DNA of 64,000 bases. It comes from Candidatus Micrarchaeota archaeon (GTDB lineage Archaea; Micrarchaeota; Micrarchaeia; Micrarchaeales; CABMGC01). The notes under the pieces are model-generated. The model was not told the origin of the DNA and did not search any database. It saw nothing but the letters and a program-made list of their open reading frames with translations. The first letter of the stretch is position 1, and the number at the start of each line of letters is the position of its first letter. Made by a program: the position numbers and the translations under genes. The DNA lies in the NCBI GenBank assembly GCA_028866995.1, contig JAGWHD010000001.1, forward strand, positions 465,030 through 529,029, in the 5' to 3' direction. This document shows, piece by piece, positions 9,747 through 63,999 of the stretch.

Positions 9747-10412
9747 ATGAGGATGAAGATCGAAGATCTGAACTGGATAGGACATGCTGGATTCCTGATA
9801 AGGGATTCAGGGAAGAACATATACATGGACCCGTTCATGATAGACGGGGTTGAGGACAAGGCAGACATAGTCTTCATAACGCACCCGCACTTCGACCATC
9901 TGAACCAGGACGACCTGAAGAGGATAGTGACCGACAAGACAACTGTCATAGTCCCGAAGAGCTGCGCAGCAGAGATCAAGAAGGGCAAGGTATATCCTGT
10001 AGAGCCCAACAAGGAGTACGAAGTCGAAGGGATCAAGTTCAGGACAGTTCCTGCTTATAACGTGGTCAGCGAGAGGCTTGACAAGCATCCAAGGACGAAC
10101 AACTGGGTCGGTTACATAGCCGATATCAGCGGCACAAAGATCTACCATCCTGGGGATACCGATTTCATACCAGAAATGAACGGCCTCCAGACTGACATAG
10201 CGTTGCTTCCTATGAGCGGCACATACACCATGGACGTCAACGAGGCCATAGAGGCGGCCAAGGCCATCAAGGCAGGCAAGGTAATACCTATGCACTACAA
10301 GATGGTGCTGGGAGAAGAGAATTCAAGACTCGCAGAGAAGCTGTTCAAGGAGAAGGTGAAGAACAGCGTGTTCCTGAAGGAGATAATACCGGCGAAGTAC
10401 TCATTCCAGTAG
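9747..10412 (+). CDS. MBL-fold metallo-hydrolase
   Basis: HxHxDH motif (THPHFDH) and a later H/D ligand (PMHY). ~220 aa, UPF0173-like. Confidence 0.7.
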   Translation: MRMKIEDLNWIGHAGFLIRDSGKNIYMDPFMIDGVEDKADIVFITHPHFDHLNQDDLKRIVTDKTTVIVPKSCAAEIKKGKVYPVEPNKEYEVEGIKFRTVPAYNVVSERLDKHPRTNNWVGYIADISGTKIYHPGDTDFIPEMNGLQTDIALLPMSGTYTMDVNEAIEAAKAIKAGKVIPMHYKMVLGEENSRLAEKLFKEKVKNSVFLKEIIPAKYSFQ

Positions 10413-11183
10413 CGCGGATAGATGCTTGGATACCTCGAGGATTCTCTCAGGGGACAGCTTGAACACTCTCTCGCCTTTCAGCTCTATCCTATCCGCAATC
10501 TTCTCCAATTCGCCCTTATCCATGCCGATGGATGACGAAGAGTCAATTATGGCGTTCCTAAGAAGCTTCTTCTTGTGCTGCATTATCAGGCCTATGAGCT
10601 CCATCTCACGCTCGGTTATGGCAACCTTCTTCGGCTGCATGTAGATGATTGCGGAATCGACCTTCGGGACAGGCCTGAAGCTCCCCTTCTTCACGTTCAT
10701 GATCTTTACTATCCTGAAAAGAAGCGAGGACATGACGCTGAGCTTCGAGTAGCTCCTGGTGTCTGGTTTCGCGAGCATATGCTCCACGAACTCCTTCTGC
10801 AGGCAGAGCACAGCCTCAAGCCTGTTCTGCGCAAGCCATTCTATCACGCTGCTGGAAAGGTAGTAAGGTATGTTCGAGATGACTATGTCTACCTTGCCCA
10901 GCTTCTTGTCATCCTTAAGGTCCATGAAATCTGCTGGCAGGAGCTCAAGGTTCTTGTGCAGCTCCCCTAATCTGACTTCAAGGAGCCTGCACAGCCTCTC
11001 GTCCTTCTCAACAGCTATAACCTCCTTCGCGTTCTTGCACAACTCCTCTGTCAGTATCCCCTGTCCTGGGCCTATCTCAAGCACCGTCTTACCCACGGCA
11101 TGAGCCGCCTCGGCCGCGGCAACGTCCCTATTGATGAGGAAGACCTGCCCAAGGCTCTTCTTGGCCCTTAACACATCCATCAA
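10401..11183 (-). CDS. rsmA: 16S rRNA (adenine-N6,N6)-dimethyltransferase
   Basis: KSLGQVFL, the SAM motif VLEIGPGQGILT, and NIPYYLSS. Confidence 0.85.
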   Translation of the reverse strand: MMDVLRAKKSLGQVFLINRDVAAAEAAHAVGKTVLEIGPGQGILTEELCKNAKEVIAVEKDERLCRLLEVRLGELHKNLELLPADFMDLKDDKKLGKVDIVISNIPYYLSSSVIEWLAQNRLEAVLCLQKEFVEHMLAKPDTRSYSKLSVMSSLLFRIVKIMNVKKGSFRPVPKVDSAIIYMQPKKVAITEREMELIGLIMQHKKKLLRNAIIDSSSSIGMDKGELEKIADRIELKGERVFKLSPERILEVSKHLSALLE

Positions 11184-11242
11184 GATCGCTGGTAGTAATG
11201 CGGTCGGGCAGCTTAATAATCTTAATCCCGAATTTATCTGTT

Positions 11243-11840
11243 GTATGAAACAGATGAAGGAACAGTCGGCAGTGGAGTTCCTGACAATCTACGGCTTCAT
11301 GTTCGTCATAATAGGAGTAACGATAACGATAATCGCGTTCGTCGCATACACGACAAATGGCTACATACCGCAGCAATGCAGCGGCCTGACAGGTCTCAAC
11401 TGCCAATTTGTCATATACTACTCGAACTCATTGCAGGCAAACGCAATAATAACAATGCAGCTGACGAATTCGCAGAGCGTCCCAATCAACATATCGAACA
11501 TAACCGTCAGCGTGAGGAACTTCACCTTCAACGGAACCTGCTCCCCACAGTTCATCAACCCCAGCGGCTGGACCGTCTGCACGATCCAGGGACCGTACAC
11601 ACCAACACTCGGGAGTCAGATTCAGGGATCCTACATAATCAGGGCAAAATACTGCAATTCCCCCATATCCAACCTCAATCAGACCTCATGCAACTTCGAG
11701 AAGGTCTCATATGTAGGCACGTTCATGACAACTGCGAGCAAACTCAGCACCACAACAACCTCATCAACATCCACAACATCTACCGCCTCTACGACCTCGT
11801 CGACCAGCACCACCACAACCTCTACATCAACATCTACCAC
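11243..11840 (+). repeat. ~598-bp direct repeat, copy 1 (5' module of paralog A)
   Basis: Translations in two + frames and one - frame are letter-identical to those 1544 nt downstream. Compare ORFs 11241-11882 with 12614-13420, and 11418-11600 with 12962-13144. Confidence 0.85.
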
Positions 11841-12744
11841 ATCAACAGTAGCTTACGTCTATTGCTCTGGGGGCGGAACTAATGGAGTATACTATGCTCC
11901 GATCTCTAGTACAGGAGTAGGAACCTGGAGTGTGGGCACCAACTATCCGTTAAGCAGTTGGGGGGAGCAAGGATGTGTGGCATACAACAACATAATCTAC
12001 TGTGTAGGTGGGCAGAGTGGTGGCACTAACACTCAAACGGTTTACTACGCCCCCATCTCCAGCACCGGCGTCGGCACCTGGACTGCAACAACCAGCTATC
12101 CCACTTCTTATACCTACAGAATCCAATGTGTCAATAGCAACAATTACATATACTGCATAGGCGGTTATTATTCTGCTTCTTCGATCAGCAATGTCTACTA
12201 CGCCCCCATCTCCAGCACCGGCGTCGGCACCTGGACCAGCACCACCAATTATCCTACGGTGATATGGGGCCACATATGCTCCGCTACCAACGGAGTGGCA
12301 TATTGTGTAGGCGGAACAAATAGCATTTCTGATACAAGTGCAGCATACTATTCCCCCCTTTCTAGCACTGGAGCAGGATTATGGGGCACTGGTACTGCTT
12401 ACCCTAGGATTGTTGAGGAAGCAGGCTGTACAGCTGCACCATCCGGTTACATATACTGTGCAACAGGTGGCTTCAACAACGGCGCCCTGAATGCAAAGGC
12501 CAGCTACTATGCAGCCATAAGCTCTGGAGTGGGGTCATGGGCAGCAACGACTGCGTACCCACTCAACGAAACCGACATAGCCTGTCTAAACAAAGACGGA
12601 TACATGTATTGCTTTGGAGGGTATACAAGCGGTGCGGTCAGCAACGTCTACTACGCACCCATCAGCAGCACCGGCGTCGGCACCTGGAGCGCAGGCACCA
12701 ATCTTCCTGTTGCCGAAACATCACCTATCTGCGTTACGCAATAA
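11245..12744 (+). CDS. pilin-like (class III signal peptide) surface protein: Cys-rich domain + Ser/Thr linker + six Kelch-like blades (paralog A)
   Basis: The start is chosen at MKQMKEQSAVEFL..., identical to paralog B. QSAxEFL plus a hydrophobic helix is the archaeal prepilin-type signal. A 30-aa S/T tract follows, then six repeats Y[IV]YC[VI]GG...VYYAPISSTGVGTW..T.YP. Confidence 0.6.
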   Translation: MKQMKEQSAVEFLTIYGFMFVIIGVTITIIAFVAYTTNGYIPQQCSGLTGLNCQFVIYYSNSLQANAIITMQLTNSQSVPINISNITVSVRNFTFNGTCSPQFINPSGWTVCTIQGPYTPTLGSQIQGSYIIRAKYCNSPISNLNQTSCNFEKVSYVGTFMTTASKLSTTTTSSTSTTSTASTTSSTSTTTTSTSTSTTSTVAYVYCSGGGTNGVYYAPISSTGVGTWSVGTNYPLSSWGEQGCVAYNNIIYCVGGQSGGTNTQTVYYAPISSTGVGTWTATTSYPTSYTYRIQCVNSNNYIYCIGGYYSASSISNVYYAPISSTGVGTWTSTTNYPTVIWGHICSATNGVAYCVGGTNSISDTSAAYYSPLSSTGAGLWGTGTAYPRIVEEAGCTAAPSGYIYCATGGFNNGALNAKASYYAAISSGVGSWAATTAYPLNETDIACLNKDGYMYCFGGYTSGAVSNVYYAPISSTGVGTWSAGTNLPVAETSPICVTQ

Positions 12745-12786
12745 GCTTATCAAACCATTAATAACCTTGACGCTGAAATTACGTCC

Positions 12787-18969: not shown

Positions 18970-19770
18970 TTATCTCGCATTGTGCAGTAGCATTCTAGTA
19001 ATCTTTGTCCGGAACAGTTTTGTATAGCTTCTAAGCGCTACCAGAATAACGAATATAACTGAAAAAAGCACCAAATTGGTAAAATGTATTTGTATGGTCA
19101 TTTGCGGAAATCCTGTAAAGTTTGCTACCAATTGAATCACAGAGAAATACACTAGAAGCATAAGGAATAGTATGCCAATTACGCTTACGCATAAAATGGC
19201 AACTTTCATAATCGGTTTTTTACCTTTTGCTTTTAACCTGGCCAGATTCCCTAACATGAATATATCTATCAAAGAGAACACCAGGATTATTGCAATCCCC
19301 TGCACACCGAACTCCGAAATTCCAGTACCGAAAATATTCTGAAAATACTCTATAACTACTGTGGAATATATGGATAGTATGGACGACAGGAAGAATACGA
19401 TTGCTAGGTAGTTTCCAAGTGCGTGGTGGTTTATGCGCCGTACCTCTATTTTCAAGGATTTTGTGCGATTATATAGCGTACTGAAGATTAAGAGGGACAA
19501 ATAAGCTAAGAATATCTCCAATATCACCACCTGAAGATCCATATAGAAGGTCTCATAATCAACAGTTCCGTTATTGGATACCTGTTCAGTATAAGCGTTG
19601 AAACTGCTGGTCAGATAATAAAAGATTTTGTCTGTAGGGAATATGGCGGTATAATAATGCGTGAAGTTGGTTTCATAGTAGTTGGTAACCGAGACTATCG
19701 CGTACACAGTAACAAGGACTAGAATAGGATAAGCCGCATACTGCAAGATGCTTCTCAATGACACTACCAT
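18970..19770 (-). CDS. hypothetical polytopic membrane protein (AT-rich gene)
   Basis: Five to six hydrophobic helices and no recognisable motif. One 60-nt line counted by hand has 20/60 G+C. Confidence 0.45.
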   Translation of the reverse strand: MVVSLRSILQYAAYPILVLVTVYAIVSVTNYYETNFTHYYTAIFPTDKIFYYLTSSFNAYTEQVSNNGTVDYETFYMDLQVVILEIFLAYLSLLIFSTLYNRTKSLKIEVRRINHHALGNYLAIVFFLSSILSIYSTVVIEYFQNIFGTGISEFGVQGIAIILVFSLIDIFMLGNLARLKAKGKKPIMKVAILCVSVIGILFLMLLVYFSVIQLVANFTGFPQMTIQIHFTNLVLFSVIFVILVALRSYTKLFRTKITRMLLHNAR

Positions 19771-19811
19771 GAAGATCTTTTATTCTACTACTCTATTCAG
19801 ATAATAAAATA

Positions 19812-21428
19812 CTATCTCTTCAAGTTCGAAAAGCCAAGACTCTTACTGTTCGATTCAGGTGCCGAGGTACTGCTTGGTTTCGGATCCTCAACAACTGTCT
19901 TGTTTGCGGGCTTTGGCTGTGTCGCTTCAAATGTACTGACCCATGCAGATATTGCCACTCCTAATAGTGACGTATCAACACCGACAGGTGCCAACGCAAC
20001 ATCCCCTACCTTTCCTACCAAGGTAGGTATATCCTGAGTAAGCACGGCAGCTCCTGTGTTTATCCTGCTTAGCACTGACTCAAGCTGTCCCATCACAGGG
20101 TCACCATCTACACTTGCAATTATCCTAGTCACTTCATCTGCAAATCCAACCCCCTGGTTGACTCCAGTAGCAGTCCCTACGACTTGCGTGACATTTATGG
20201 GCTGCGCAGATCCAGTGGTATCTTGATTGACTGTTGTGGTTGTCTGTTGTGTACTGGTTCCTGTAGTGGTGCTTGTGGTCGTTGTAACTCCCTGTGCCGG
20301 ATCTGCTTTCTGCGCGGTTGTCTGACCCTCTGCTTTTGTCATGGTCGTGAGGGTGCCGACTCCGGTCTTTATGGTTATTGGACGTACTGTTGCAGCAGAA
20401 CCTGGTGCATTTGATTGCGAGGTAGACGGAGTACCTTGCTTTCCAGGCGCAATCAAATATGCGACATCTGTTGGATTCTGCACTCCTGCACTGTTGTTCT
20501 GCGAGAAGTTCGTGTACCAACCTTCCCCGACGAATCCCTGCTGCGCATCATAAGGTTGCTTTCCAGGGGCAACTAAATATACGACGGCTGTTGAATCGGG
20601 CACGCCTGCGTTATTGTTCGGAGAGAAGTTAGTGTACCATCCCATCCCAAGAAAGCCCTTCTGCGCATCATAAGGATTGCCCTTTGAGCCTGTTGCTTGT
20701 GCAAACTGAGAGGCAGGCAGAGGCCCTTGCTTTCCAGGCGCAATCAAATATGCGACATCTGTTGGATTCTGCACTCCTGCACTGTTTCCCTTGGAAAAAT
20801 CGGTATAGTATCCCACGCCTACGAATCCCTTCTGTGCATCGTATGGGTTGTTCTTTGAACCATCTGGAGACTCAGCATTGCTTTGGGAGCTGCCCTGCGA
20901 TGTCGCAGGCGCTGATGGTTGCACTTGCGTTGTTGCTGGCGTCGTTGTTGTAACCTGAGACGCAGTTGCTGTCGGGTCTTGGTTCTGCTGTGCTGCCGCT
21001 GAAGGGTCCTGGCTGGTATTTTGGGGCTGGGCTGGAACCTGGACTGGCTGTTGAGAGGGCATAGGTGCTGGCCCCTGGGTCCCTGGGGCTACCAAATAAA
21101 CTACATCGGTGGCGTTGGGCACCCCCGCTGCATTTCCTTGGGAAAAGTCGGTATAGTATCCTGGCTGGACGAATCCGTTCTGCGCGTTATATGGGTTGCC
21201 CTGCGAACCTACGGATGAGTCTGCCTGCGCCAATCCTGGAGACAGTGCTGTCACTACGGCTACGGCCGGAACAGCCATTGCTTTCGCTAGAGTCTTCACG
21301 ATCCTCCTATCTCTATGACCCACATCCCTTTCCACCTGCCTCAATGCATCTGGCAGTGCATTCCCTTCTGCATGGCTAACGCGCATCTCGCTTACTTTTG
21401 ACTTACTCCTCATCCATACACCAATCAA
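19812..21428 (-). CDS. secreted repeat protein (probable Tat signal; four ~41-aa GNPYDAQ.GF..G.YT.FS...AGV...T.V.YL.APG repeats; Thr/Gln-rich linkers)
   Basis: DRRIVKTLAKAMAVPAVAVVTALSPGLAQA resembles a twin-arginine signal with an AxA cleavage site. The four internal repeats are read directly from the translation. Confidence 0.5.
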   Translation of the reverse strand: MIGVWMRSKSKVSEMRVSHAEGNALPDALRQVERDVGHRDRRIVKTLAKAMAVPAVAVVTALSPGLAQADSSVGSQGNPYNAQNGFVQPGYYTDFSQGNAAGVPNATDVVYLVAPGTQGPAPMPSQQPVQVPAQPQNTSQDPSAAAQQNQDPTATASQVTTTTPATTQVQPSAPATSQGSSQSNAESPDGSKNNPYDAQKGFVGVGYYTDFSKGNSAGVQNPTDVAYLIAPGKQGPLPASQFAQATGSKGNPYDAQKGFLGMGWYTNFSPNNNAGVPDSTAVVYLVAPGKQPYDAQQGFVGEGWYTNFSQNNSAGVQNPTDVAYLIAPGKQGTPSTSQSNAPGSAATVRPITIKTGVGTLTTMTKAEGQTTAQKADPAQGVTTTTSTTTGTSTQQTTTTVNQDTTGSAQPINVTQVVGTATGVNQGVGFADEVTRIIASVDGDPVMGQLESVLSRINTGAAVLTQDIPTLVGKVGDVALAPVGVDTSLLGVAISAWVSTFEATQPKPANKTVVEDPKPSSTSAPESNSKSLGFSNLKR

Positions 21429-22105: not shown

Positions 22106-23434
22106 ATGAAAAGTTTACCAGATAAAGTTAAGGAAGCATTAATAAAGTTGAAGGCAACGCACATCCATTATGTAGAGGCAAAGTCGATTAAGGGGCGCTA
22201 TTATGCCTTTGAAGTTACTGGTAAATGGGACAAGAAACTGAAGAAGAAATTCAAGGTAACTCATTATCTTGGCAGAATAAGGGAAGACGGCGCGTTCCTG
22301 CCCGCAAAACACAGAAACAGGACCTCACAAACACCGTCGCCGAAAAGTCCGGCGGAAGAACCCGTCCATAAATATGACGAGGTAATATTAAGGAACCTTA
22401 CCATGAATGGTAGAATGCCTATGCCATTCCTGGCAAAGAAACTGGGCCTTAGCGTTACTGCGACAAGATATCAGGTCAACAGAGTAGAGGAAAAATATGG
22501 CATAAGATACATAGCAGAAATAGATTTTGGCAGAATTATCGGATATACTACATATGTTGCCTTTGTCAAGTTCGTTGACAAGGTTCCCAATGCTGACGAT
22601 ATAAGGACTGCAATGCAGAATGAACCCTCCATATCGGCAGCAGCATTGATTAGTGGCACATATGATTTGGCAATATTTTTGATAATAACCGATAACCAGC
22701 AATTGCTGAACCTGATAAACAGACTTAGGACGCAAACTGCGCTTAAGGATTACGAATCGTTGTGGTACTTCTCATTGAGATATAATACCTATAACTTTAT
22801 CCCTGCTCGCGCCAAGTTCTTTGATCTACTCGAAGAAAAGATATGGAAAAAGACGGCAGAGCAGCCAAGACCGAAAGGAGGGGAACTGAATTACCGCGAA
22901 TTTATAGTTCTGAAGGAACTGACCAACGATGGAAAGATCAACTTCTCGGAGATAGACAAAAAATATGGATGGGATTCAGGTGCCTCTCAATACACCTTCC
23001 ATAAATTGATGGAGGAGGGCACTATAGTAAGGACCACAATAACAATGGAAAAGCTCCCGATAAAATATAATGCACTGTTCATAGCAAATATTATAGACGA
23101 TGAAAAATTCTTGAAGGCAAGGTTCCATAGGCTTCAAATGATGATCACTGACAAGAACGCTCTAATCAATAACTACGTTTTCATAGCCACCATCGGAACA
23201 CCCTACAGTCAGATATACATATGTCCGATTTTTGAAGAGTCTAATCTAATAGACTATAAGAATGATATGCAGGAGATAAACAAAGGTAGCAGCATAAGTA
23301 TGTCAATCATAACTAATGTGCTTGTAGGTAATCTTTGCTATAGAAATCTAGATAATATGTATTCTTACCCCTACAAAACACTAGTGAATGAATATAAGAT
23401 ACCCCAACCAAAGCAGCCTGTAGAATACGAATAA
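22106..23434 (+). CDS. fused tandem Lrp/AsnC-like regulator (unassigned ~90-aa N-domain + two HTH-plus-RAM modules)
   Basis: Module 1: ILRNLTMNGRMPMPFLAKKLGLSVTATRYQVNRVEEKYGI plus SGTYDLAIFLI. Module 2: EFIVLKELTNDGKINFSEIDKKYG...HKLMEEGTIV. The gene is AT-rich (19/60 G+C on one counted line). Confidence 0.5.
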   Translation: MKSLPDKVKEALIKLKATHIHYVEAKSIKGRYYAFEVTGKWDKKLKKKFKVTHYLGRIREDGAFLPAKHRNRTSQTPSPKSPAEEPVHKYDEVILRNLTMNGRMPMPFLAKKLGLSVTATRYQVNRVEEKYGIRYIAEIDFGRIIGYTTYVAFVKFVDKVPNADDIRTAMQNEPSISAAALISGTYDLAIFLIITDNQQLLNLINRLRTQTALKDYESLWYFSLRYNTYNFIPARAKFFDLLEEKIWKKTAEQPRPKGGELNYREFIVLKELTNDGKINFSEIDKKYGWDSGASQYTFHKLMEEGTIVRTTITMEKLPIKYNALFIANIIDDEKFLKARFHRLQMMITDKNALINNYVFIATIGTPYSQIYICPIFEESNLIDYKNDMQEINKGSSISMSIITNVLVGNLCYRNLDNMYSYPYKTLVNEYKIPQPKQPVEYE

Positions 23435-23559
23435 GTGCTTCCCGATCTATGTTTCTAGGTTCCTCCTCCGTCCATCAACAACACCTCAATTAGAGAGTCG
23501 TAAGTCGGTTTTAAAAACCTATTCTATGACCATATTTACTGGAATAACCGGTCTTTTTT

Positions 23560-24078
23560 ATGAGGATAAGATACGCAAAACCAGGCGATTTCAAGGATAT
23601 CGCTACCATGGTTTATGATATGTACGTAGAAGTCGGGAAGAATTCCAGTTTTGGCGATTATGTCAGGCTTAACCGACCCAATACCCATCTAGTAAAGGAC
23701 TGGTTTGCAAATATCTATAAAGAATCAAAGAATGGCCATTCCGTATATCTTGTGGCCGAGGAGAAGGGTCACGTAATAGGACATTGTTTTGTGAGGAAGA
23801 GGGACATACCAGACTCGGAGAGATCCCATGTGGGTGTTCTTTCCATATTAGTGAACAGGACATGGAGAAATAGCGGCGTAGGCACGCGTTTGATTAAGAA
23901 GACTTTGAAGCTCAGCAGGAAAAAGTTCGATGTAGTGCAACTATCCGTATTGGCCATAAACAAAAGAGCGATACGACTTTATGAACGTTTTGGTTTCAAG
24001 AGATGGGGAATCGAACCAATGTATGCCAAAAGAAAAGGGAAGTATATCGATTCGGTCCATATGTATCTGAAACTATAA
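23560..24078 (+). CDS. GNAT-family N-acetyltransferase
   Basis: Acetyl-CoA motif A R-x-x-G-x-G (WRNSGVGTRLI) and a C-terminal YERFGF. Confidence 0.75.
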   Translation: MRIRYAKPGDFKDIATMVYDMYVEVGKNSSFGDYVRLNRPNTHLVKDWFANIYKESKNGHSVYLVAEEKGHVIGHCFVRKRDIPDSERSHVGVLSILVNRTWRNSGVGTRLIKKTLKLSRKKFDVVQLSVLAINKRAIRLYERFGFKRWGIEPMYAKRKGKYIDSVHMYLKL

Positions 24079-24092
24079 TCGCCCTTTGGAAC

Positions 24093-25001
24093 TTATCCCT
24101 TTGCCTTCTTGGCAAGGTGCTTTATGAGAAGCCCTGCAACGTCTATCTTGGTAGCTTCCTTGAATCCCTGCCATGACATGGTTGGATTGGCCTCGAGTAT
24201 GCTGTATCCGTCCTTGTCCTCAGCTATGTCTATGCCTGCATAATCAAGGTTCAATACCTCTGCAGCCTTCACCGCGATCTCCCCCATCTCCTTCGGTGTC
24301 TTCACAGCTGTAGGTACCGCTCCCTGCGCCACATTGCTCTTCCAGTCCTTTCCCTTCCTGAATTCAGTCCCTATGACCTTGCCTCCTATCACGACCACCC
24401 TGTAATCTCCTCCTCCCTTCTTCTCGATGTATTTCTGCATGTACAGCGGCTTGCTGAGGTTTGTGAAATAGCTGAATATATGCATCGCTACATCTGGGTC
24501 CTTGACGCGGAAGACACCGAAGCCCATCGCGCCCCTGAGCGGCTTTATGACCACCTCCCCCATCTCCTTTACTGCTTTGTACGCGACGTACATGTCCTCG
24601 GACATGAAGGTCCTTGGAACCGGCAATCCCTTCTTCGCCAGGAGCGTGAGTGAGGCAAGCTTGTCGCTTGCAGTGAGCCAGCTGAGGGCACTGTTCATGA
24701 CGTAGACTCCTGATTCCTCTATGGCCCTGACCGACCACACCCTGCTGGACAGCTGTTCGAAGTCCTTCACGACACCAAGGTGCCTGAGCATCGCAGCATC
24801 AACCTCTATCCTTTCAGGATGCCCCTTCGAGACCATCTGCGACAGCTCGATCTTTCCGTTCCTCAGGTCTATGCCGAGCTTGTCTATGAATATGCTGCCT
24901 ATCTCATGTCCCAGTGCCTTTGCAGCCCTCTCAAGGTCCTGATGCCCCTCATTGCTGTACTCGACCCCGTGAGGCCTTATGAGCCCTATCCTCAAGCACA
25001 C
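24093..25001 (-). CDS. RimK/LysX-type ATP-grasp ligase
   Basis: ATP-grasp layout: VVIKPLRGAMGFGV, YMQKYIEKKGGGDYRVVVIGG and GIDIAEDKDGYSILEANP. Confidence 0.75.
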   Translation of the reverse strand: MCLRIGLIRPHGVEYSNEGHQDLERAAKALGHEIGSIFIDKLGIDLRNGKIELSQMVSKGHPERIEVDAAMLRHLGVVKDFEQLSSRVWSVRAIEESGVYVMNSALSWLTASDKLASLTLLAKKGLPVPRTFMSEDMYVAYKAVKEMGEVVIKPLRGAMGFGVFRVKDPDVAMHIFSYFTNLSKPLYMQKYIEKKGGGDYRVVVIGGKVIGTEFRKGKDWKSNVAQGAVPTAVKTPKEMGEIAVKAAEVLNLDYAGIDIAEDKDGYSILEANPTMSWQGFKEATKIDVAGLLIKHLAKKAKG

Positions 25002-25044: not shown

Positions 25045-26436
25045 TCAGTCCCTGAGAACTGCCTCTATGCTCCTCAGGTACCTGCTCCTAGGCATCTCAT
25101 GGAAGTTCCTCCTCTGCATGTCCGCCATGTTTGTGCCAGAATCCACTATCTCCTGCGCGTATGCAAGGTATCTCTCGTTCTCCCCCGCAAGCCTCAAGCC
25201 TTCAAGCGCAAGCCTTACCATGTCCCTTGCGACCTCAAGCATAGGCTCTCCATCATAGGCGCCCTTCAGGCCGCTGTCTATCGCAGAGACCCTCGCTGCC
25301 CCTATTGTATCGTCACCGTGCATCGCCAGCCTCTCCATAGCAGCATCAGCATTCGCCACAAGCCCCCTTACTATGGCAGCGATCGACATTATGCCGCTTA
25401 TGCTTCTTGGAGTATCTGCTATCCTGACCTCGAGCCTTCCCTTGACCTCTCCGTCAGACTCCCCTATCCTTGGCCTCACGCAGTGCCTCAATGCGCCAAG
25501 CTGCGTATACAGCTCCTCCCTTCCAGGGATCACAGTAACGGCCCTTTCATGGTGCTCCACGCTGTAGGCATCCGCGCTTCCGTTGCCTATTACAGAGCGC
25601 AGCGTAGTGGGCTCCCTGTATGCAAGGTAATCCTTGCCTTTGCTTGTAACGAAGGCAGGCATGTCCAGCACCATGTCAAGGACATCGTGCATGCTCTCGA
25701 CCTTAGGAGGTATGCCGACCAGCTGCAGGTACTTCCAGGTCATCTGGTCCCAGAATCCTTCTCTTACGCTGGACCTGCCGCTGTCCCTTCCCATGTATAT
25801 CGGCGAGTTGCCGAACACCGCGGATATCGGCGGTATGTATCTTTTCAGCATCTCCATCAGCCTAGGCACCTCCTCCAAAGACACCTCTATGTTGGGGTGC
25901 ACGACAGCGCTGATCGTATGCAAGTATATGAGGTCTCCTAGGAAAGGCCTGAATGCCCTGTACCTCCTCCCAGGGGTCATCTGTCTCTCATCAGGAACAG
26001 CATACGGGCTTATGCCTGAACCCAGGTCCAGAAGTCCCAGCTCCCTAGCTGTCCTGGTTATCGTAGGCAGGTTCTCCCTGAGCTCGAGCTCAAGCGCCTC
26101 TAGCGATGTATGCGGGGCCCCAGCAAATTCTACTATGCTTATCCCCAGCTCCCTCTGTATGCTTAGCGGGTAGCCGTTGTTCTGCTTCCACAGCGTCTGT
26201 TCGCCATTAAGGACCCATGCCGGATCCGCAGCGGCAACTCCCTCTATCAGCTCCTTCCTCCTAGCAGCGGTCATCGGGCTTCCGTCCTTGGCCTCCACTA
26301 TGACCCTCTCGACCTCAAGCCCCATCCTCCTCCTGCGCTCGCTGATGCTGGTCCTGAAGCTGCTCCTGAGCGCATCCCCCATCATCCTTACGGTGTAAGG
26401 CCTGGGAGTTTCATCAGGATGGATTTTTGTTGGCAT
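25045..26436 (-). CDS. glutamate-cysteine ligase family 2 (GCS2/YbdK-like carboxylate-amine ligase)
   Basis: MGLEVERVIVE resembles the GxExE N-terminal strand of GCS2 enzymes, and the ~460-aa size fits. The assignment comes from motif memory only. Confidence 0.5.
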   Translation of the reverse strand: MPTKIHPDETPRPYTVRMMGDALRSSFRTSISERRRRMGLEVERVIVEAKDGSPMTAARRKELIEGVAAADPAWVLNGEQTLWKQNNGYPLSIQRELGISIVEFAGAPHTSLEALELELRENLPTITRTARELGLLDLGSGISPYAVPDERQMTPGRRYRAFRPFLGDLIYLHTISAVVHPNIEVSLEEVPRLMEMLKRYIPPISAVFGNSPIYMGRDSGRSSVREGFWDQMTWKYLQLVGIPPKVESMHDVLDMVLDMPAFVTSKGKDYLAYREPTTLRSVIGNGSADAYSVEHHERAVTVIPGREELYTQLGALRHCVRPRIGESDGEVKGRLEVRIADTPRSISGIMSIAAIVRGLVANADAAMERLAMHGDDTIGAARVSAIDSGLKGAYDGEPMLEVARDMVRLALEGLRLAGENERYLAYAQEIVDSGTNMADMQRRNFHEMPRSRYLRSIEAVLRD

Positions 26437-26616
26437 ATACTATCATCGTTTGTAAAAAGCTGCAAGAGGATCTGGCAGCTTAAGCGCTAAACCAGAAGCC
26501 GAAGAAGAAGACGGAAGCAGAGCTGGAGGCCGAATAGGTCCTTGAACTGCCCTTTGCCTGCATGCTATCTGCTGAAAGGAGGTGTTTTCAGGTATTTAAA
26601 GCTTGGTCTTGGCGGT

Positions 26617-26660
26617 CCTGTCGCTTATTCGTCAGTTTATATGCCTGTCGCATTCGTCAG
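26617..26660 (+). repeat. imperfect direct repeat CCTGTCGC(TT)ATTCGTCAG x2 flanking TTTATAT
   Basis: Read directly: 26617-26635 and 26644-26660. It sits at the left edge of the AT-rich islet. Confidence 0.6.
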
Positions 26661-26790
26661 GTGCTTTGGGGTGATTAAATGAAATTACCCTCTCTTTCAG
26701 AGCAAGATAAACTCGCAATTATAGGCATAGTAGCAACCAGGATACTTCTTATTCTTTTCTTGGTTATAACTTCTTGAATAGGGTATTCAA

Positions 26791-27558
26791 GTGGATGTGT
26801 ATGATTTTCTTATAACACTCGTGTTAGTTTCAGGACTCGCAATAATTGTAATAGGCCTTCTAACTCATCAATCTACATATTTCCTATCGGGAGGATTTAT
26901 AGCTATAGGTTTTTACCTATATCTCCTATTTCTAATGAAATTAACGTCATTTGAAGTTCATTCTACGGTCTATAGAGTAGGGTTATACGTTATCGCTATT
27001 CTTTTCATATGTGTGGTATTGGGATATATCATATCATTTATAATGCAGGTAAATGTCCCACATATAGCTCAATTCGAAATTTCCATTTTCGAAGCAATAC
27101 ACACAAATCTAATAGTCGGTTCAAGCATACTTGTTGCGATAGCTGGAATTTTTGGTAAGAACAACAAGATTCTATTAAAACAAACAATTTTCATCGCTTT
27201 GATAGTAATACTTATGTCTTTAGGTTCACTGGAGTTCTATTCATTATATAATTCTTACAAATTTGATTTTCTTATAATAATAAATGCAGAATTTCTGTTA
27301 ATTATAATTTTGTTCAAGATTTTGTATAATATAATAGGAAGGCCAGGTTATCCATTCGAAATAACATATACTACATCTGAAGGAACATTAGGTCATGAGA
27401 AAGAGCACGTGGCGATATTGAATATAGCGGCACGCACGCCACACGAAGCATTTATGAGTATACGGGCGGATAATAGACTACGCAATAGAAGAAACGCTGA
27501 GGATAGGTTATTCCTTGAAATAAAGAATGGTGAAATTAAAAGGATAAGGAAATTATAA
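26791..27558 (+). CDS. hypothetical ~6-TM membrane protein with basic C-terminal cytoplasmic tail
   Basis: GTG start. Six hydrophobic segments are followed by ~75 soluble residues (GRPGYPFEITYTTSEG...RADNRLRNRRNAEDRL). One counted line has 19/60 G+C. Confidence 0.5.
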   Translation: MDVYDFLITLVLVSGLAIIVIGLLTHQSTYFLSGGFIAIGFYLYLLFLMKLTSFEVHSTVYRVGLYVIAILFICVVLGYIISFIMQVNVPHIAQFEISIFEAIHTNLIVGSSILVAIAGIFGKNNKILLKQTIFIALIVILMSLGSLEFYSLYNSYKFDFLIIINAEFLLIIILFKILYNIIGRPGYPFEITYTTSEGTLGHEKEHVAILNIAARTPHEAFMSIRADNRLRNRRNAEDRLFLEIKNGEIKRIRKL

Positions 27559-27785
27559 TGACGAATGTTTAATCAGATTTAACCATCTATTCCTTTCACT
27601 ACCAATACTTATCCCTACCATCTCCGAAGGCGTAAGTCCGTTGAAATTTGTGCGATTATCTCCGCTCAAAGAACCATGTGGCTTGCACCAACGAAATTCT
27701 TTTGAAGGTTCTATGCCATAATATATGTGTGCTGATACAGGAAATGTTTGAATTAGGGATAAAACCTGAGTTTTTAAGTGTATAA

Positions 27786-28406
27786 ATGTCGTCTACAAAG
27801 ATTTTTATTAGTCATGCTGCCGAAGGTAAATTTCTTGCAGGTCAGATTAAAGGCTATCTATTATACAATTTTGGGTTAGATGTGTTTGTAGCGCATGATG
27901 ACATCAAACCATTATCAGATTGGAGAGAAGAACTTTTGAAAGGGATGAAAGAAAGTAATGTCATTATTATACTTCTCACAAAAGATTGCAGAGAATCTGA
28001 ATGGGTTGATCAAGAAAGTGGAATGGGAGTAATTTTAGGACATAAGATAATACCGATTTCTGTCGATGGTACAACTCCACATGGATTTATTAATAAGTAT
28101 CAAGCGTTTAAATGGTCTGGTGAATTCGATGCAGGTATGTCTCGCCTAATTACTCTTATGACTCGACAGGGACTTATAACTATTGACAATTTTATTGATA
28201 AATTAGACAGAACAACAGATTTTCACGATGCTAAAAGAAACTTGAAAACTATAATGAATATGGAAGATGATGGAGTGAAACTTGACCAAAAGCAAGTTAA
28301 TAGGATAGTAGATATTACAAAACATAACTATGCTGTCTCTAATTCTTTTTCTGCCGAATCACTTATTGCGGAGTTTATTAAAAAACATAAAAAAGATATA
28401 GAATGA
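27786..28406 (+). CDS. TIR-like (TIR_2/DUF1863-type) domain protein with unassigned helical C-terminal half
   Basis: KIFISHA..., GLDVFVAHDDIKPLSDWREEL, SNVIIILLTKDCRESEWVDQESG and HKIIPISVD match the TIR beta-alpha pattern, including the S-x-W...E segment. Confidence 0.65.
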   Translation: MSSTKIFISHAAEGKFLAGQIKGYLLYNFGLDVFVAHDDIKPLSDWREELLKGMKESNVIIILLTKDCRESEWVDQESGMGVILGHKIIPISVDGTTPHGFINKYQAFKWSGEFDAGMSRLITLMTRQGLITIDNFIDKLDRTTDFHDAKRNLKTIMNMEDDGVKLDQKQVNRIVDITKHNYAVSNSFSAESLIAEFIKKHKKDIE

Positions 28407-28411
28407 GGATA

Positions 28412-28469
28412 ATTTCCGTTTTCCGACAAAATTAGGACTTTTCCGACAACTTCAAAGTTTTCCTACAAA
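28412..28469 (+). repeat. three direct repeats TTTTCC(G/T)ACAA at 20/19-nt spacing
   Basis: Read directly at 28419-28430, 28439-28450 and 28458-28469, with a partial ATTTCCG at 28412. They lie between the TIR gene stop and the convergent Nre gene stop. Confidence 0.6.
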
Positions 28470-28523
28470 GCCAAACTAAACATAATATACTTAAGTACAA
28501 GTATGGCATCTAAAGGTTCGGAT

Positions 28524-29732
28524 TTAGCCGGTAAGGCGCTTCTGGTACATCTCCTTAGTGAGGAGGGTGCTGTTCCTTATCCATGTCTTGATCGGTATCT
28601 CCATCTTGGTGGAGATGTAAGAATAGAGCTGCTCCCTAGTCTCGAAGTACAGCGGTGTTCCTCTCAATGCCTCCCTTACGTGCTCCCTTACGTTCCAGAC
28701 TCCTACAGGCATTATGTAGCCTTCGTGCGCCTCCCTGAGTATGACGACTCTTGCCTGCTTCTCCATCTTGTCGAGCAGCTCTGTGGAAGCGAGCTTCGCC
28801 GCGTAGTAGCAGCCGCCTATCTCTGCATACTTGGTTCTGCCTGTGAAAGGCTCGTACGATGAGTATATGTCTATGGACTTGCCGTCCGGATTCCAAGAGG
28901 TCTTCGGATACCAAGCTTCTACAAGCTCGTATTCCCAAGCTCCTGGGAACATTATGACCAGCCAGCGGTTGTCAAGCGCGTTGTTAGGGTATACCCTTAT
29001 GCAGTCTATGCTGTCATACTCCTTGACACCCTTGAGCTTGTACTTGCCCAGTGTGTCGTCTACAGCGGTTATGCTCCATCTGGTAGGCACAAACTTCCTG
29101 TTCTTCCCAGTTCCCAGCACTCCTGCGGACAACGCCTTCTGGATCTTCGATACAAGCACATCCTTCTCGTAGAGCTCTATGATGGCATCCTTCGCAGGCA
29201 TCGCCGTATCGCGGTAGGCGCTCTCCACCTTCTGGTTTACAGTAGTGTTGTCTATGCGCATGTCCTTGAGCGTAGCGCTCGGCCCGTACGGCTGGCTGTT
29301 CTCATCGAAGCTCATCCTGAGCACGGGCCTGTGCGCCAACGTCTCTGTGACCCCGCTGTACTTGTCCGATATGGCAAGCTCCTTGACCATCTCCTCTATC
29401 CTTCCATTATCGGCGTTGGTGACCTTGGTCCTGTACATGCCCCTTATCAGCATCGACCTCATCTCCACTATCTCGGGTATGCTCTTGCCGACCCATCTCT
29501 CGGGAGTGCTCATTATGGAGGTGTCGCCGAACTGCGGCGGCACCATCGGCCCTATGTTTACGTTCGGGTACCCGAACCTGCCAACGAATATGTCTGGAGG
29601 GGACGATCCCTGCACGTCATTGCCGGAAAGATGCTCCAGTGCCTTGAACTTGTAGTAGTACTTGAGCAGGGACGGATCTCTCATGTTCTTGTAGACTGCT
29701 ATGGACCTTACAACATCCATGCCTGCCATCAT
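28524..29732 (-). CDS. nreA: archaeal Nre-family DNA repair protein (DUF650/DUF651)
   Basis: SSPPDIFVGRFGYPNVNIGPM and a ~400-aa size match my recollection of the Nre family. Confidence 0.55.
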   Translation of the reverse strand: MMAGMDVVRSIAVYKNMRDPSLLKYYYKFKALEHLSGNDVQGSSPPDIFVGRFGYPNVNIGPMVPPQFGDTSIMSTPERWVGKSIPEIVEMRSMLIRGMYRTKVTNADNGRIEEMVKELAISDKYSGVTETLAHRPVLRMSFDENSQPYGPSATLKDMRIDNTTVNQKVESAYRDTAMPAKDAIIELYEKDVLVSKIQKALSAGVLGTGKNRKFVPTRWSITAVDDTLGKYKLKGVKEYDSIDCIRVYPNNALDNRWLVIMFPGAWEYELVEAWYPKTSWNPDGKSIDIYSSYEPFTGRTKYAEIGGCYYAAKLASTELLDKMEKQARVVILREAHEGYIMPVGVWNVREHVREALRGTPLYFETREQLYSYISTKMEIPIKTWIRNSTLLTKEMYQKRLTG

Positions 29733-30879: not shown

Positions 30880-30953
30880 GGGGGGCTCTGCTAGCTTGGT
30901 CAGGCTTCAGCCTTCGGGAGGCTGCGACCCGTGTTCAAATCACGGGCCCCCCG
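30880..30953 (+). tRNA. tRNA-Pro (anticodon CGG), no encoded CCA
   Basis: Hand-folded. The acceptor stem GGGGGGC/GCCCCCC has 7 perfect bp. The anticodon stem is CAGCC/GGCTG with loop TTCGGGA. The T arm is CCGTG-TTCAAAT-CACGG. The D loop has A14, GG and A21. There is one T-T mismatch at 10-25. Confidence 0.8.
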
Positions 30954-60768: not shown

Positions 60769-61668
60769 TTGCTACCGAACCGTGACATACCAATGCAATC
60801 TTACAGTCATAACTTTATTTTTGCATTAGCTGCATTACTGGTTCTTGCTTTTGCCGCCTATGAAAACGCAACATCGGTATACGGCACGAAAATGATAGGA
60901 AACATAAAGTATTGCTCTTTCGATAGCCATAACTATTCTCTTGATCTTTACATGCCTGTATCTCAACTCCAGGAGCAACGGCCTTTGATAATATATGTCC
61001 ACGGAGGGGCATTCACTTCCGGAGATAAGAACAATAGTGTGGGAAACCAAATCTTTCCATATTTGGTATCTAACGGTTTTGTGGTTGCCTCAATAGACTA
61101 TGGGCTCTTACAGAATGACACTATCGTCCAGGAAATAGAAGAAACGAAGTGTTCGATAAGGTTTCTGAGGGTCAATGCCCGACTATATGGGATAGATCCG
61201 CAACAGATTGGCATATGGGGAGCATCAGCAGGAGGCTATCTTGCAACAATAACGGGAACAACGAACAGCATATCCTCATTCAACCAAGGCCAGTATCTCA
61301 ATTACTCAAGCAACGTATCGGCCGTCTGCGATTGGTTTGGTGTAACTGTTATAGCGAGATACATCGGTGTCGACGCGCACAGCAGTCTCCAAGAGCAAGA
61401 GACCGCAAAGCAGTTGCAGCCAGGATACTATGCCTCAAAGAACGATCCTCCTTTCATAATATTCCACGGCACGAATGATTCTGTCGTGCCTCTTAACGAC
61501 TCATTGCAGTTATATGACGAGCTTACTTCGAACGACGTGAACGTTGAACTCGTGCTCGTTAAAAACTCAGGACATGACTTTATGCAAGTGGGGAACAAAT
61601 CAATATCGCCATCCTTTACAAATATAACCGACGAAACGATATCCTTTTTCAAGAAGAACCTGCAATGA
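60769..61668 (+). CDS. alpha/beta hydrolase (esterase/lipase, HGG type)
   Basis: VHGGAF oxyanion motif, nucleophile elbow GASAGG and a C-terminal GHDF. N-terminal anchor present. The start is at 60769 (TTG) or 60793 (ATG). Confidence 0.7.
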   Translation: MLPNRDIPMQSYSHNFIFALAALLVLAFAAYENATSVYGTKMIGNIKYCSFDSHNYSLDLYMPVSQLQEQRPLIIYVHGGAFTSGDKNNSVGNQIFPYLVSNGFVVASIDYGLLQNDTIVQEIEETKCSIRFLRVNARLYGIDPQQIGIWGASAGGYLATITGTTNSISSFNQGQYLNYSSNVSAVCDWFGVTVIARYIGVDAHSSLQEQETAKQLQPGYYASKNDPPFIIFHGTNDSVVPLNDSLQLYDELTSNDVNVELVLVKNSGHDFMQVGNKSISPSFTNITDETISFFKKNLQ

Positions 61669-61671
61669 CTG

Positions 61672-63999
61672 TCACTTGTAGTCGATCTTGAATATTTTGG
61701 TGTCATTGTTTAGATATACTGCATCGTACGTTACATTGGATGTGTCTGCAGGGCATACGTAGGCGTTGCATAGGACTGTGAACTTGAAGAAGTTGCTCTT
61801 GTACAGCTCAGGTCCAACTATCGTTCCTCCAACTATCTCGTTGTTCTTGTACGTTACCAGCAGCGTGTAGTTCAACGAGTTTGTGACATTCGACGTGGCT
61901 ATGCTGTAGTTGAAGTTCTGCGTATTGTAGAATACCACATTCCTTATAAGAACAAGGGTATCGGAAGAGACGGTGCCTATGAAAGCGGCAAATCTTGTCG
62001 TTTGGTTCGACTGTGGCGCAACCACCAGCTCTGCCCTATAGCCGCTTGTGTTGTTCCCCGAAGAAAATCTGTAGTATACTGTATTGTTTATGATTGTCCT
62101 GTTGAGATCGGTCAGTGTCTGGTAGCTGTAAGGGGTAACATTGGTGAGGCCGGCCTCAAAGAAAAGTCCCTGGAGTTCAGCATACCAAAACGTCCTTGAA
62201 ACAAGGTAATCTGGCTTTCCAATAGAATACAGGAAATCGGTGGCGTTGCTGGTGTTGAAGAGCCATCTGTTGAATGGAGCTATCTTGGTGCCGTTCTCGC
62301 CGCCGACGCTGTCCAGATAGCTCGTTCTGTTCGCCCACCCCTCGACCACGCTTCCATCGGTCCATACGGCTGCAACTGTCGCGTTCGTAGGTGTGTTGTT
62401 CCTCATCCACTGCATCGCCTCGAGCAGTCTGCCATTTATGCCGTCGGCAGGATGGCTGGTCGCCGCAGCTATGTACGCAGAATAGAATCCGTATATCAGC
62501 AGCACCGCCACGAGGCACGCGTAGGCTTGCGCAGCAAATTCCCTGTTCCTTGCATAGCCGTATGCGATGTAACCTATAGCAAATACGATTGCTCCAACAG
62601 ATACTATGCGCGCCACTATTCCCACGATAAAGTAAGAGCCAGGTATGGATAGCGGCGATGTGATGTAGAGGCAGACAAGAAGGGATGCGCCAAGGGCCAA
62701 AGCCGACGCTGTCCTAAGCATCCTGCCGCTGCGAATTGCGTTGGCATGCTTCCTGAACAGCGCCAAAGGGAGAAAGAGGCAGTATGCGGCAAATATCGCC
62801 ATGGGAACTGCAAATACGGCATTGAAGCGGACCGCCGACCCTTGCAGTATTCCTGTCACGATGATATATGAGACTATAGAGAGAAATGCCGGGCTTATGT
62901 TGAGGTGGAGCTTCCCAACCTTGCGATGCTCATTATCCTCGGCATAACTGGAAAGGAGCAGGAAGAAGAGGAAGCCAAGCGGCGCGAGCAAAATCTGCAT
63001 GTTGAATACCCTTGCGAGGAAGTCAAGCGTGGTGGGCTGCAGCTCAAGTGTCGTAAGGCCAACTGCATTGTGCCCGAATACCGCGTTGTAATGGCTGATG
63101 ATCTGTCCGGAGAGGAGTACAAGCGCTACCGCTGCAAAGGCTATAACTGCAAGTAGTCTATTCGTGCTGCTACTGAGGAATCTGAACCTCTGCCTGCTGC
63201 CTAGTGCGTAATATGCCGCTGCCAAGCCTGCTAGCACCGGCAGGTAAATGACGAAGAAATCAAGGCCTGTCAGAGGGAGGCTTAGTCTGGATAGATCGAC
63301 ATAGGCATATAGGTGCTGGAGCAGGTACGCGAGAAGGAGCGATAGCGAGGCGACAATGCCCTTTTTCAAGAGCGGTTCCCTGTCTGCGATGAAGGCGTAT
63401 AATGATATCAGGACAACAGCGCCAAGATACACGAGAAAAGTATAAGGGAAGCCGTTCCAGACAACGGATCCAAGGCTGAGCACCACGCCTGAAAGGGCAA
63501 TGGCATAGTAGGCCTTCCTGACATTTCCGGTTTCCTCAAGACCCTTGAGCATAAGGTACAGTGCAGCCAGTATGAAGACACCGATGAAGGTATCTCCTCT
63601 GTACTCCGTTCCTGCAGTCCTTGAAAGGCTGCCTATGGAGACTGCTGTAAGGAATAACACCAGGAGCCCGAAAACAGGGCTCTTGGAGAGCCTCCTGGCA
63701 AGCATCCATGTGCCTATCATGGTGAGGACACCGAACAGGATCGGCACCAGCCTCATTACTGTATAATAGCTGACTCCGAGGTACCTGAGGAAAAAGTACG
63801 GTATGGCGCTCATGTATATGATTCCAGGAGCCTCCCCTATGTGGTTATGTGCCGGAAAGCCAGAAAGGTATGAGTATGTGGGCACAATGAAGCCATTCTG
63901 GATGGTCTCCCTTAATACTGAATAATAGAAGTATACATCAGGCTCGAAAAACCCCAGGTTCTTGAGCATTACTGCCCTTATGACGACCCCCATGGTCAC
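61672..63999 (-). CDS. aglB: AglB/STT3-like oligosaccharyltransferase (5' end probably outside window)
   Basis: FFEPDVYFYYSVLRETIQNG resembles the first-loop D-x-D region. There are 13 or more TM helices. The C-terminal soluble domain is preceded by MQWMRNNTP...AAVWTDGSVVEGW, at the position of the WWDYG motif. Confidence 0.65.
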   Translation of the reverse strand: MTMGVVIRAVMLKNLGFFEPDVYFYYSVLRETIQNGFIVPTYSYLSGFPAHNHIGEAPGIIYMSAIPYFFLRYLGVSYYTVMRLVPILFGVLTMIGTWMLARRLSKSPVFGLLVLFLTAVSIGSLSRTAGTEYRGDTFIGVFILAALYLMLKGLEETGNVRKAYYAIALSGVVLSLGSVVWNGFPYTFLVYLGAVVLISLYAFIADREPLLKKGIVASLSLLLAYLLQHLYAYVDLSRLSLPLTGLDFFVIYLPVLAGLAAAYYALGSRQRFRFLSSSTNRLLAVIAFAAVALVLLSGQIISHYNAVFGHNAVGLTTLELQPTTLDFLARVFNMQILLAPLGFLFFLLLSSYAEDNEHRKVGKLHLNISPAFLSIVSYIIVTGILQGSAVRFNAVFAVPMAIFAAYCLFLPLALFRKHANAIRSGRMLRTASALALGASLLVCLYITSPLSIPGSYFIVGIVARIVSVGAIVFAIGYIAYGYARNREFAAQAYACLVAVLLIYGFYSAYIAAATSHPADGINGRLLEAMQWMRNNTPTNATVAAVWTDGSVVEGWANRTSYLDSVGGENGTKIAPFNRWLFNTSNATDFLYSIGKPDYLVSRTFWYAELQGLFFEAGLTNVTPYSYQTLTDLNRTIINNTVYYRFSSGNNTSGYRAELVVAPQSNQTTRFAAFIGTVSSDTLVLIRNVVFYNTQNFNYSIATSNVTNSLNYTLLVTYKNNEIVGGTIVGPELYKSNFFKFTVLCNAYVCPADTSNVTYDAVYLNNDTKIFKIDYK

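Follow-up and report, generated by a model that had tools for sequence, protein, structure and literature searches.

Does a small TIR protein encoded in an AT-rich islet of an archaeal genome act together with the membrane protein encoded beside it, or does it act alone? The islet lies in a 64-kb stretch of DNA (hereafter, the window) from a metagenome-assembled genome (MAG) of Candidatus Micrarchaeota, a DPANN archaeon. It holds two intact open reading frames (ORFs) on one strand, ORF 26791–27558 for a protein with six transmembrane (TM) helices (the 6-TM protein) and ORF 27786–28406 for the TIR protein. An earlier reading of the window (the original prediction) had put the two forward as a TIR-plus-membrane-protein defense pair. 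We favor, at a little better than an even chance of being right, a reading in which ORF 27786–28406 is a self-contained single-gene antiviral of the abortive-infection type, namely a sensor-activated TIR effector with a C-terminal domain of the kind found in DARNA, and in which the 6-TM gene is not its partner.

The product of ORF 27786–28406 is a genuine TIR-superfamily protein with a TIR fold, as had been proposed from its motifs (KIFISHA, GLDVFVAHDDI and SEWVDQESG, all of which are present). In particular, Pfam TIR_2 (PF13676) matched residues 6–122 over model positions 1–122 of 122 with 54.1 bits, against a curated cut-off of 28, and Pfam ThsB_TIR scored 24.9 bits, also above its cut-off (21.2). 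A confident AlphaFold model built from 25 relatives (predicted local distance difference test (pLDDT), 92.7; predicted template modeling score, 0.84) has a flavodoxin-like TIR fold, with the elements beta-A (5–9), alpha-A (12–29), beta-B (32–35), alpha-B (46–56), beta-C (59–64), alpha-C (72–83) and beta-D (87–92). When this model was compared with the PDB using Foldseek, the top matches were TIR domains that consume nicotinamide adenine dinucleotide (NAD+), namely those of SPARTA TIR-APAZ, SARM1, AbTIR, SpbK and ThsB, with a probability of 1.00, and a sequence-profile search of the PDB with the TIR protein matched 7uxr, Cat1 and SARM1. The Glu that had been singled out as the catalytic residue, E77 of the S-x-W-x-x-x-E segment (S71-E-W73-V-D-Q-E77), is invariant in 25 of 25 full-length relatives, and aligns with the Glu of WTEYE in 7uxr and with that of WTNYE in AbTIR, the catalytic E208. 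Also invariant among the 25 relatives are F34, A36, H37, D39, W46, G79, P98, G100 and F101; with E77 these make ten, each of which the window protein keeps. TIR_2 is the sole family above cut-off in all 25 members. We infer that the domain would cleave NAD+.

The approximately 100 amino acids that follow the TIR domain had been described in the original prediction as helical and unassignable; they are helical, and they can now be assigned to a family-wide domain that most likely is related to the end of DARNA (also called PD-T7-3) that senses single-stranded DNA (ssDNA). An initial search returned only one relative, a distant one that is 33% identical over 98% of the length, and a profile search returned about 25 relatives of 205–356 amino acids, one of them from a genome of Candidatus Pacebacteria, a member of the candidate phyla radiation. 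Because these relatives align across both halves of the protein (90–99% of its length), the C-terminal domain is part of the TIR family. Its helices span residues 114–200 in the high-confidence model, and conservation is concentrated at a few polar or aromatic positions, with F, Y or W at position 146 in 25 of 25 members, Q170 in 23, N181 in 24 and Q183 in 20. A hidden Markov model (HMM) of the other 20 C-terminal domains of the family recognized that of the window protein with 42.8 bits (E = 2e-15). The PADLOC model for PD-T7-3 was matched by 14 of the 25 full-length members (best, 2.1e-7) and by 13 of 21 isolated C-terminal domains (best, 3.8e-8), always at model positions ~320–419 of 432. 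(Note that structure searches with the whole model were dominated by the TIR domain, and that the isolated C-terminal domain gave no significant match in the PDB, the DARNA structure not being among the structures searched.)

DARNA is a single-protein abortive-infection system of Escherichia coli that is activated by ssDNA bound to the single-stranded-DNA-binding protein (SSB) of a phage (bioRxiv 10.64898/2026.02.22.705581; Vassallo et al. 2022, PMC9519451). Its N-terminal part is a HEPN tRNA anticodon nuclease, and its C-terminal domain, which is helical, binds SSB-presented ssDNA, with base-specific contacts made by F368, D372, N402, Q403, Y405, W406 and N408, and the mutants F368A and W406A are dead (bioRxiv 10.64898/2026.02.22.705581). 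We took the C-terminal sequence of DARNA from a published alignment, in which the motifs ADF-ERAD and NQCYWRN match the numbering of the preprint exactly. Independent runs of hhalign and hmmsearch placed the TIR family on this sequence in one register, pairing F146 with F368, A149 with A371, Q170 with Q390, N181 with N401, Q183 with Q403, and family positions 185 and 186 with Y405 and W406. Because of this shared register, the most conserved residues of the family's C-terminal domain coincide with base contacts of DARNA: the F368 position is the one that is aromatic in every member, the N401 position is Asn in 24 of 25, and the Q403 position is Gln in 20 of 25. The window protein keeps F146, Q170 and N181, and has K150, Y182, A183, S185 and N186 at the other contact positions. 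Like DARNA, then, the TIR protein combines in one polypeptide an effector at its N terminus with a helical domain at its C terminus, in which the aromatic and Gln/Asn residues of the family stand in register with F368, N401/N402 and Q403. Unlike DARNA, an E. coli protein whose effector is a HEPN RNase, it comes from an archaeon, and its N-terminal domain is TIR and not a HEPN RNase with the R-x4-H motif. On these findings, the C-terminal domain is most likely a relative of that distal portion of the DARNA C-terminal domain which binds ssDNA, a relationship that rests mainly on the family-model matches because scores against the single DARNA sequence are weak.

Indeed, several observations weigh against our reading, and those weak scores are among them: the family profile aligned to the single E. 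coli DARNA sequence with an hhalign probability of 11% (P = 0.0026) and an hmmsearch score of 8.9 bits. Neither the window protein nor its own C-terminal domain matched the PADLOC PD-T7-3 model directly, so that the link is transitive, running through a family within which it is solid. At the positions of Q403, Y405 and W406 the window protein has Ala183, Ser185 and Asn186, and it lacks the last ~12–35 residues of other members; given these substitutions, its ligand may differ or its binding may be weaker. The similarity is confined to about 100 of the ~300 C-terminal residues of DARNA, the distal third, and the TIR protein has nothing equivalent to the dodecamer scaffold on which DARNA depends. 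The C-terminal domain HMM did not match BxaP or ORF5348, two published structural homologues of PD-T7-3. One relative (at locus L046) is surrounded by radical-SAM and cytochrome genes, with no obvious defense genes nearby. A role in defense is deduced here from sequence and predicted models, and the TIR core also resembles the signal-producing TIRs of ThsB and ThcB, so that the sequence fits either NAD+ depletion or synthesis of a signal.

Other defense proteins resemble one half of the TIR protein or the other. SPARTA, SARM1, TIR-STING, Cat1 and SpbK share with it a TIR fold with a conserved catalytic Glu, and sensor-activated TIR NADases of this sort operate by a logic in which a sensing module brings about TIR assembly and hence NAD+ depletion, the cue of SPARTA also being nucleic acid. 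In those systems the sensing modules are Argonaute, ARM/SAM, STING and CARF, whereas here the sensor would be a helical domain of ~95 residues within the same small polypeptide. Two of PADLOC's candidate single-gene systems come close: PDC-S34 resembles the C-terminal domain (13 of 21 isolated C-terminal domains matched it, the best at 2.8e-8, at model positions ~294–380 of 384), and PDC-S66 resembles the TIR core (in 23 of 25 members). However, neither model spans both halves of the protein, both systems are themselves candidates, and none of the papers searched mentions PDC-S34. We regard as highly unlikely a more sweeping proposal, that the ~95-residue domain is a portable ssDNA-sensing cassette mounted on unrelated suicide effectors (the HEPN RNase of DARNA, the TIR NADase here and the unknown effector of PDC-S34), and that an archaeal Thoeris-like two-gene system lacking any known effector domain would result.

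The closest sequence matches of the TIR core are to ThsB of Thoeris types I and II and to ThcB4 of type III. The PADLOC ThsB model PDLC00434 matched the window protein at 1.6e-8, and the NCBIfam model of ThcB4 (NF058526) matched it at 2e-9 with 36.8 bits. These matches, together with that to ThsB_TIR, raise the possibility that the protein is an orphan ThsB- or ThcB-like sensor TIR, which would sense infection and make a cyclic ADP-ribose-type or ADP-ribose-conjugate signal, leaving the killing to an effector whose gene lies at another place in the genome and not itself depleting NAD+. Consistent with this, the ThcB4 and PDLC00434 matches of two relatives (P0013 and P0017) reach ~50–60 residues past the TIR core into the C-terminal domain, which suggests that some Thoeris TIR proteins may carry a related domain. 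However, relatives score 28–62 bits against ThcB4, for which the equivalog cut-off is 220. Components of Thoeris are normally adjacent, yet no gene for a ThsA-type effector (SIR2-SLOG, TM-Macro, SLOG-nuclease or caspase) adjoined the TIR gene in the islet and its flanks or in 10 other contexts of the family, the rest of the 64-kb window not being scanned; within the islet, the absence of SIR2, Macro and SLOG effector domains had already been pointed out. We consider the orphan-sensor explanation unlikely, and the likeness to ThsB-type TIRs is a similarity at the level of the domain only.

Whether the 6-TM protein could be the missing partner was addressed by comparing gene neighborhoods, and the pairing put forward in the original prediction did not hold up. 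In the 10 TIR-family contexts besides the window, no neighboring gene was conserved and no multi-TM neighbor was seen (0 of 10); the immediate neighbors have at most one hydrophobic segment each. What recurs instead is a setting of mobile and defense genes. Insertion sequence transposases lie beside four relatives (L001, L008, L009 and L010), and restriction-modification (R-M) genes of type IIG or type ISP adjoin three (L001, L011 and L057). One relative lies inside a type I R-M locus (L047), one has an OLD-family nuclease 4 nt downstream (L048), and an IMG/VR contig carries another (L049). Also found near relatives are a PD-T7-4-like protein (L001), a second TIR protein (L057), a serine recombinase (L011) and a trypsin-TPR protein (L046).

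Two of these loci have features of their own. In the Candidatus Pacebacteria locus (L011, 5020–7981, plus strand), the TIR relative is 326 amino acids long, with an N-terminal extension of ~110 residues, and overlaps the stop codon of an upstream 223-amino-acid gene, the last of a same-strand run of unannotated genes (121, 308 and 223 amino acids) that follows genes for a type ISP R-M enzyme, an AAA_15 ATPase, DUF2130 and DUF2779; this run may be a larger operon in the Pacebacteria lineage. At one TIR-relative locus (L001, 8953–13248) and one locus of the membrane-protein family (L013, 3841–8095), a type IIG MmeI/Eco57I-like R-M gene adjoins one for a ClpP-like SDH-type serine protease, and the two could be a recurring module.

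The 6-TM protein itself has six helices by hydropathy (residues 6–24, 31–49, 67–85, 99–117, 127–145 and 160–178), as had been predicted, with both termini inside by the positive-inside rule. Its tail, which had been called basic, is 77 residues long and only mildly so (14 K+R and 10 D+E). No match was found in Pfam, PADLOC, NCBIfam or PHROGs, and the best hit of a profile search of the PDB had E = 1.9; with no curated family or solved structure matched, the protein is not a known housekeeping transporter. We assigned no fold to it, because the AlphaFold model was poor (pLDDT 55), so that its secondary structure alone was used, and the best Foldseek match in the PDB had E = 0.43. HMMER, run exhaustively against 1.84 billion representatives, yielded six family members in all. 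A two-sequence alignment, scanned against collections of genomes, metagenomes and viruses, added no further loci, and the alignment of all six sequences was too divergent to derive patterns from. The family includes TM-only (P0041 and P0038) and tail-only (P0039 and P0040; 72–73 amino acids) proteins, and upstream of one tail-only gene are an in-frame stop and the apparent end of a TM-only gene; because such relatives exist, we conclude that the window protein is a fusion of two modules that can occur apart.

A separable, conserved cytoplasmic module of ~70 residues could be a ligand-binding domain, which speaks for the two-gene explanation. In that explanation the TIR protein would make an NAD+-derived signal on infection, and the 6-TM protein would sense it through its tail and permeabilize the membrane, by analogy with type II Thoeris, in which a TIR protein works with a ThsA effector that has TM segments and a Macro domain and which thus provides a precedent for a TIR with a membrane effector. 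The two genes are, moreover, adjacent, on the same strand, in the same islet and of the same low G+C content, so that they probably arrived together, and in two of the three other membrane-family contexts the membrane gene heads a same-strand array that ends in R-M genes. However, the 6-TM protein lacks the Macro domain of type II ThsA, and its tail matched no Macro, SLOG, SIR2, CARF or SAVED domain in Pfam, PADLOC or NCBIfam. In none of the three contexts (0 of 3) is there a TIR gene, and the downstream gene is different in each: at L045, a divergent TFB-like gene is followed by the membrane gene, genes for proteins of 381 and 138 amino acids, and hsdM/S/R; at L013, the membrane gene is followed by genes for a 117-amino-acid membrane protein, a type IIG R-M enzyme and an SDH protease; and at L014, the tail gene is followed by a TFB-like gene. 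Besides the TFB-like gene (41% identity), a further small gene is common to L014 and L045, and the two together look like the backbone of a mobile element, typical of such an element and not of a defense operon. The 381-amino-acid protein of L045 was considered as a carrier of the sensor domain of the TIR protein and rejected (hhalign probability, 0.8%). Finally, the 227-nt spacer between the two window genes, present as originally described, contains a TATA-like ATAAAA at 27759–27764, ~22–27 nt upstream of the ATG of the TIR gene, that may act as a promoter and would suggest separate transcription. Taken together, these observations make the two-gene explanation distinctly improbable, and the membrane gene is probably a mobile-element backbone gene. 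(In L045, the stretch that encodes the 381- and 138-amino-acid proteins (11030–12780, plus strand), between the membrane gene and the type I R-M operon, is AT-rich; neither protein matched Pfam, PADLOC, NCBIfam or PHROGs, and they are possible unknown defense genes.)

The islet is as AT-rich as the original prediction had it, at about one-third G+C. Its G+C content is 0.28–0.36 across about 26.65–28.5 kb, against 0.52–0.59 in the flanking GCS2 and Nre genes and a window mean of 0.517 (z = -5.5 over non-overlapping 1.86-kb stretches of the window); no other such stretch is as low, the next being at 0.387, and the two genes have 0.324 and 0.329. We compared 23 related Nre loci, all from Micrarchaeota or Micrarchaeaceae MAGs. 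The synteny of the M24 peptidase gene with Nre is kept across Micrarchaeota, and the other side of Nre is variable. In the closest sibling MAG (locus L016), whose Nre is 90% identical, blastn homology extends up to the Nre stop (window position 28524) and resumes at window positions 26662–26479. Between these same flanks the sibling has a different insert, of 2046 bp and ~36% G+C over most of its length, that encodes a candidate compact one-polypeptide R-M protein (Table 1); in other Micrarchaeota this position is occupied by HerA/VirB4-like ATPase elements or a PIN gene. Because the sibling carries a different insert between the same flanks, the site, which is bounded on one side by the Nre gene and on the other by the promoter region of the GCS2/RimK operon, is a cargo hotspot, and the islet looks like horizontally acquired defense cargo, in support of the defense character originally ascribed to it. 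(We also considered whether L002, a homologous membrane-gene locus, and L045 represent the same Nre-adjacent hotspot; they do not, as the 402-amino-acid gene there lacks Nre domains.)

A last explanation treats the islet as a decaying mobile-element fragment and not as a working defense gene, the TIR protein serving in maintenance of or addiction to the element, in nucleotide metabolism, or in nothing. Elements that are larger elsewhere are represented here by only two genes; no integrase, target-site duplication, att-like direct repeat or border tRNA was found at the islet (the nearest tRNA, for Pro at 30880–30953, is 2.4 kb off, past Nre and M24); the window protein has lost the equivalent of Q403 and the C-terminal extension of the family; and 9 of the 25 members weakly match nucleoside 2-deoxyribosyltransferase, which has a related fold. 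On the other hand, both ORFs are intact, the ten invariant TIR residues, E77 included, are retained, TIR_2 alone is above cut-off throughout the family, the genes nearby are repeatedly those for R-M enzymes, an OLD nuclease or another TIR protein, and the sibling site carries a restriction-type enzyme. We think it improbable that the islet is such a fragment.

Under the reading we favor, that of a single-gene, sensor-activated TIR effector, the C-terminal domain supplies the sensor that had been sought in the partner gene. The TIR protein would be monomeric or inactive in the uninfected cell. When a virus or mobile element infects the cell, a nucleic-acid cue, most probably exposed ssDNA, would be bound by the C-terminal domains, and the binding of several copies to one strand would bring the TIR domains together. 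The assembled domains would then form composite active sites around Glu77 and hydrolyze NAD+, resulting in the arrest of both cell and virus. The gene would have been gained by horizontal transfer as cargo of the 1.86-kb islet, and the 6-TM gene would be a co-traveler from an orphan family associated with mobile elements, with no role as a dedicated partner.

Table 1 Features of the islet, its two genes and their surroundings (window coordinates unless a locus is named).
Feature	Coordinates	Strand	Description and basis
AT-rich cargo islet	26663–28523	none	1861 bp, G+C 0.334; borders from blastn against sibling locus L016
Orphan membrane protein	26791–27558	+	255 aa, GTG start; hydropathy, library and homologue searches
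6-TM module			Residues 1–~182 of ORF 26791–27558
Beta-rich cytoplasmic tail module	27343–27555	+	~70 residues (~185–255)
Spacer	27559–27785	none	227 nt; no conserved element, no Rfam match
TIR protein ORF	27786–28406	+	206 aa
TIR domain, predicted NAD+-cleaving effector	27786–28121	+	Residues 1–112; Pfam, AlphaFold, Foldseek, conservation
Catalytic Glu77 codon (predicted)	28014–28016	+
C-terminal six-helix domain, proposed sensor	28122–28406	+	Residues 113–206 and stop codon
Repeat family D1, three copies of TTTTCC(G/T)ACAA	28419–28468	+	19–20-nt spacing; right edge of islet, between convergent TIR and Nre stop codons
Nre (flank)	28524–29732	-
GCS2-type glutamate-cysteine ligase (flank)	25045–26436	-
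RimK-like ATP-grasp gene	24093–25001	-
Cargo of sibling locus L016	L016 9051–10256	+	401 aa; N6_N4 DNA methyltransferase (207 bits) fused to Mrr_cat endonuclease domain

Several non-coding and minor features of the islet and its surroundings were also noted. The three copies of TTTTCC(G/T)ACAA at the right edge of the islet are the sole matches in the 64-kb window, and three matches were reached in 4 of 100 shuffles; they may serve as oligo-T signals for termination or as an array to which a protein binds. Similarity between the window spacer and the 243-nt spacer of L002 was at chance level, as was that between the upstream regions, and Rfam gave no match at E<=1 over 26300–28700. A small ORF upstream of the membrane gene (26679–26777, 32 amino acids) was dismissed, as it has no counterpart in L002.

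Beyond the left border, a small ORF (26480–26563, minus strand; 27 amino acids, MQAKGSSRTYSASSSASVFFFGFWFSA) immediately precedes the GCS2 ligase and RimK-like genes in the same orientation, with a TATA-like TTTAAATA ~30 nt upstream of it. The ORF is conserved, its counterpart in L016, at about 10340–10430, being MQAKGSSYGHSSASSSAFGFFFSFWEFSA, and it could encode either a peptide that serves the two ligases as precursor or substrate, in the manner of a ribosomally synthesized and post-translationally modified peptide, or a leader peptide. A second patch of low G+C content (about 0.39–0.42; 22106–24078) holds genes for a GNAT acetyltransferase and for a 442-amino-acid protein with two winged-helix domains (of AsnC and MarR types) that weakly matches PADLOC CARF3/Csa3 (1.6e-6). 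Because homologues of both lie a few kb from Nre in L018 and L019, this pair looks like a conserved neighbor and not like cargo. Further dips in G+C content, at 19001–20000 (0.39) and 61001–62000 (0.445 per kb), could be small islets.

The trigger of stand-alone prokaryotic TIR proteins is largely unknown in the field, and domain shuffling is common among defense proteins. What is new here is most likely a TIR effector, in an archaeon, whose sensor module has been taken over from a HEPN system. If its C-terminal domain is indeed a DARNA-type ssDNA sensor, the 206-amino-acid protein would be a directly testable model of a pathway that leads from ssDNA through TIR assembly to loss of NAD+, and one sensing module would have been reused with different killing domains in bacteria and archaea. 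A survey of groundwater reports that the defense repertoires of DPANN archaea look sparse and suggests that systems missed by current tools may account for part of the low counts (PMC12259885). If our reading is correct, it would add a candidate for abortive infection to the DPANN archaea.

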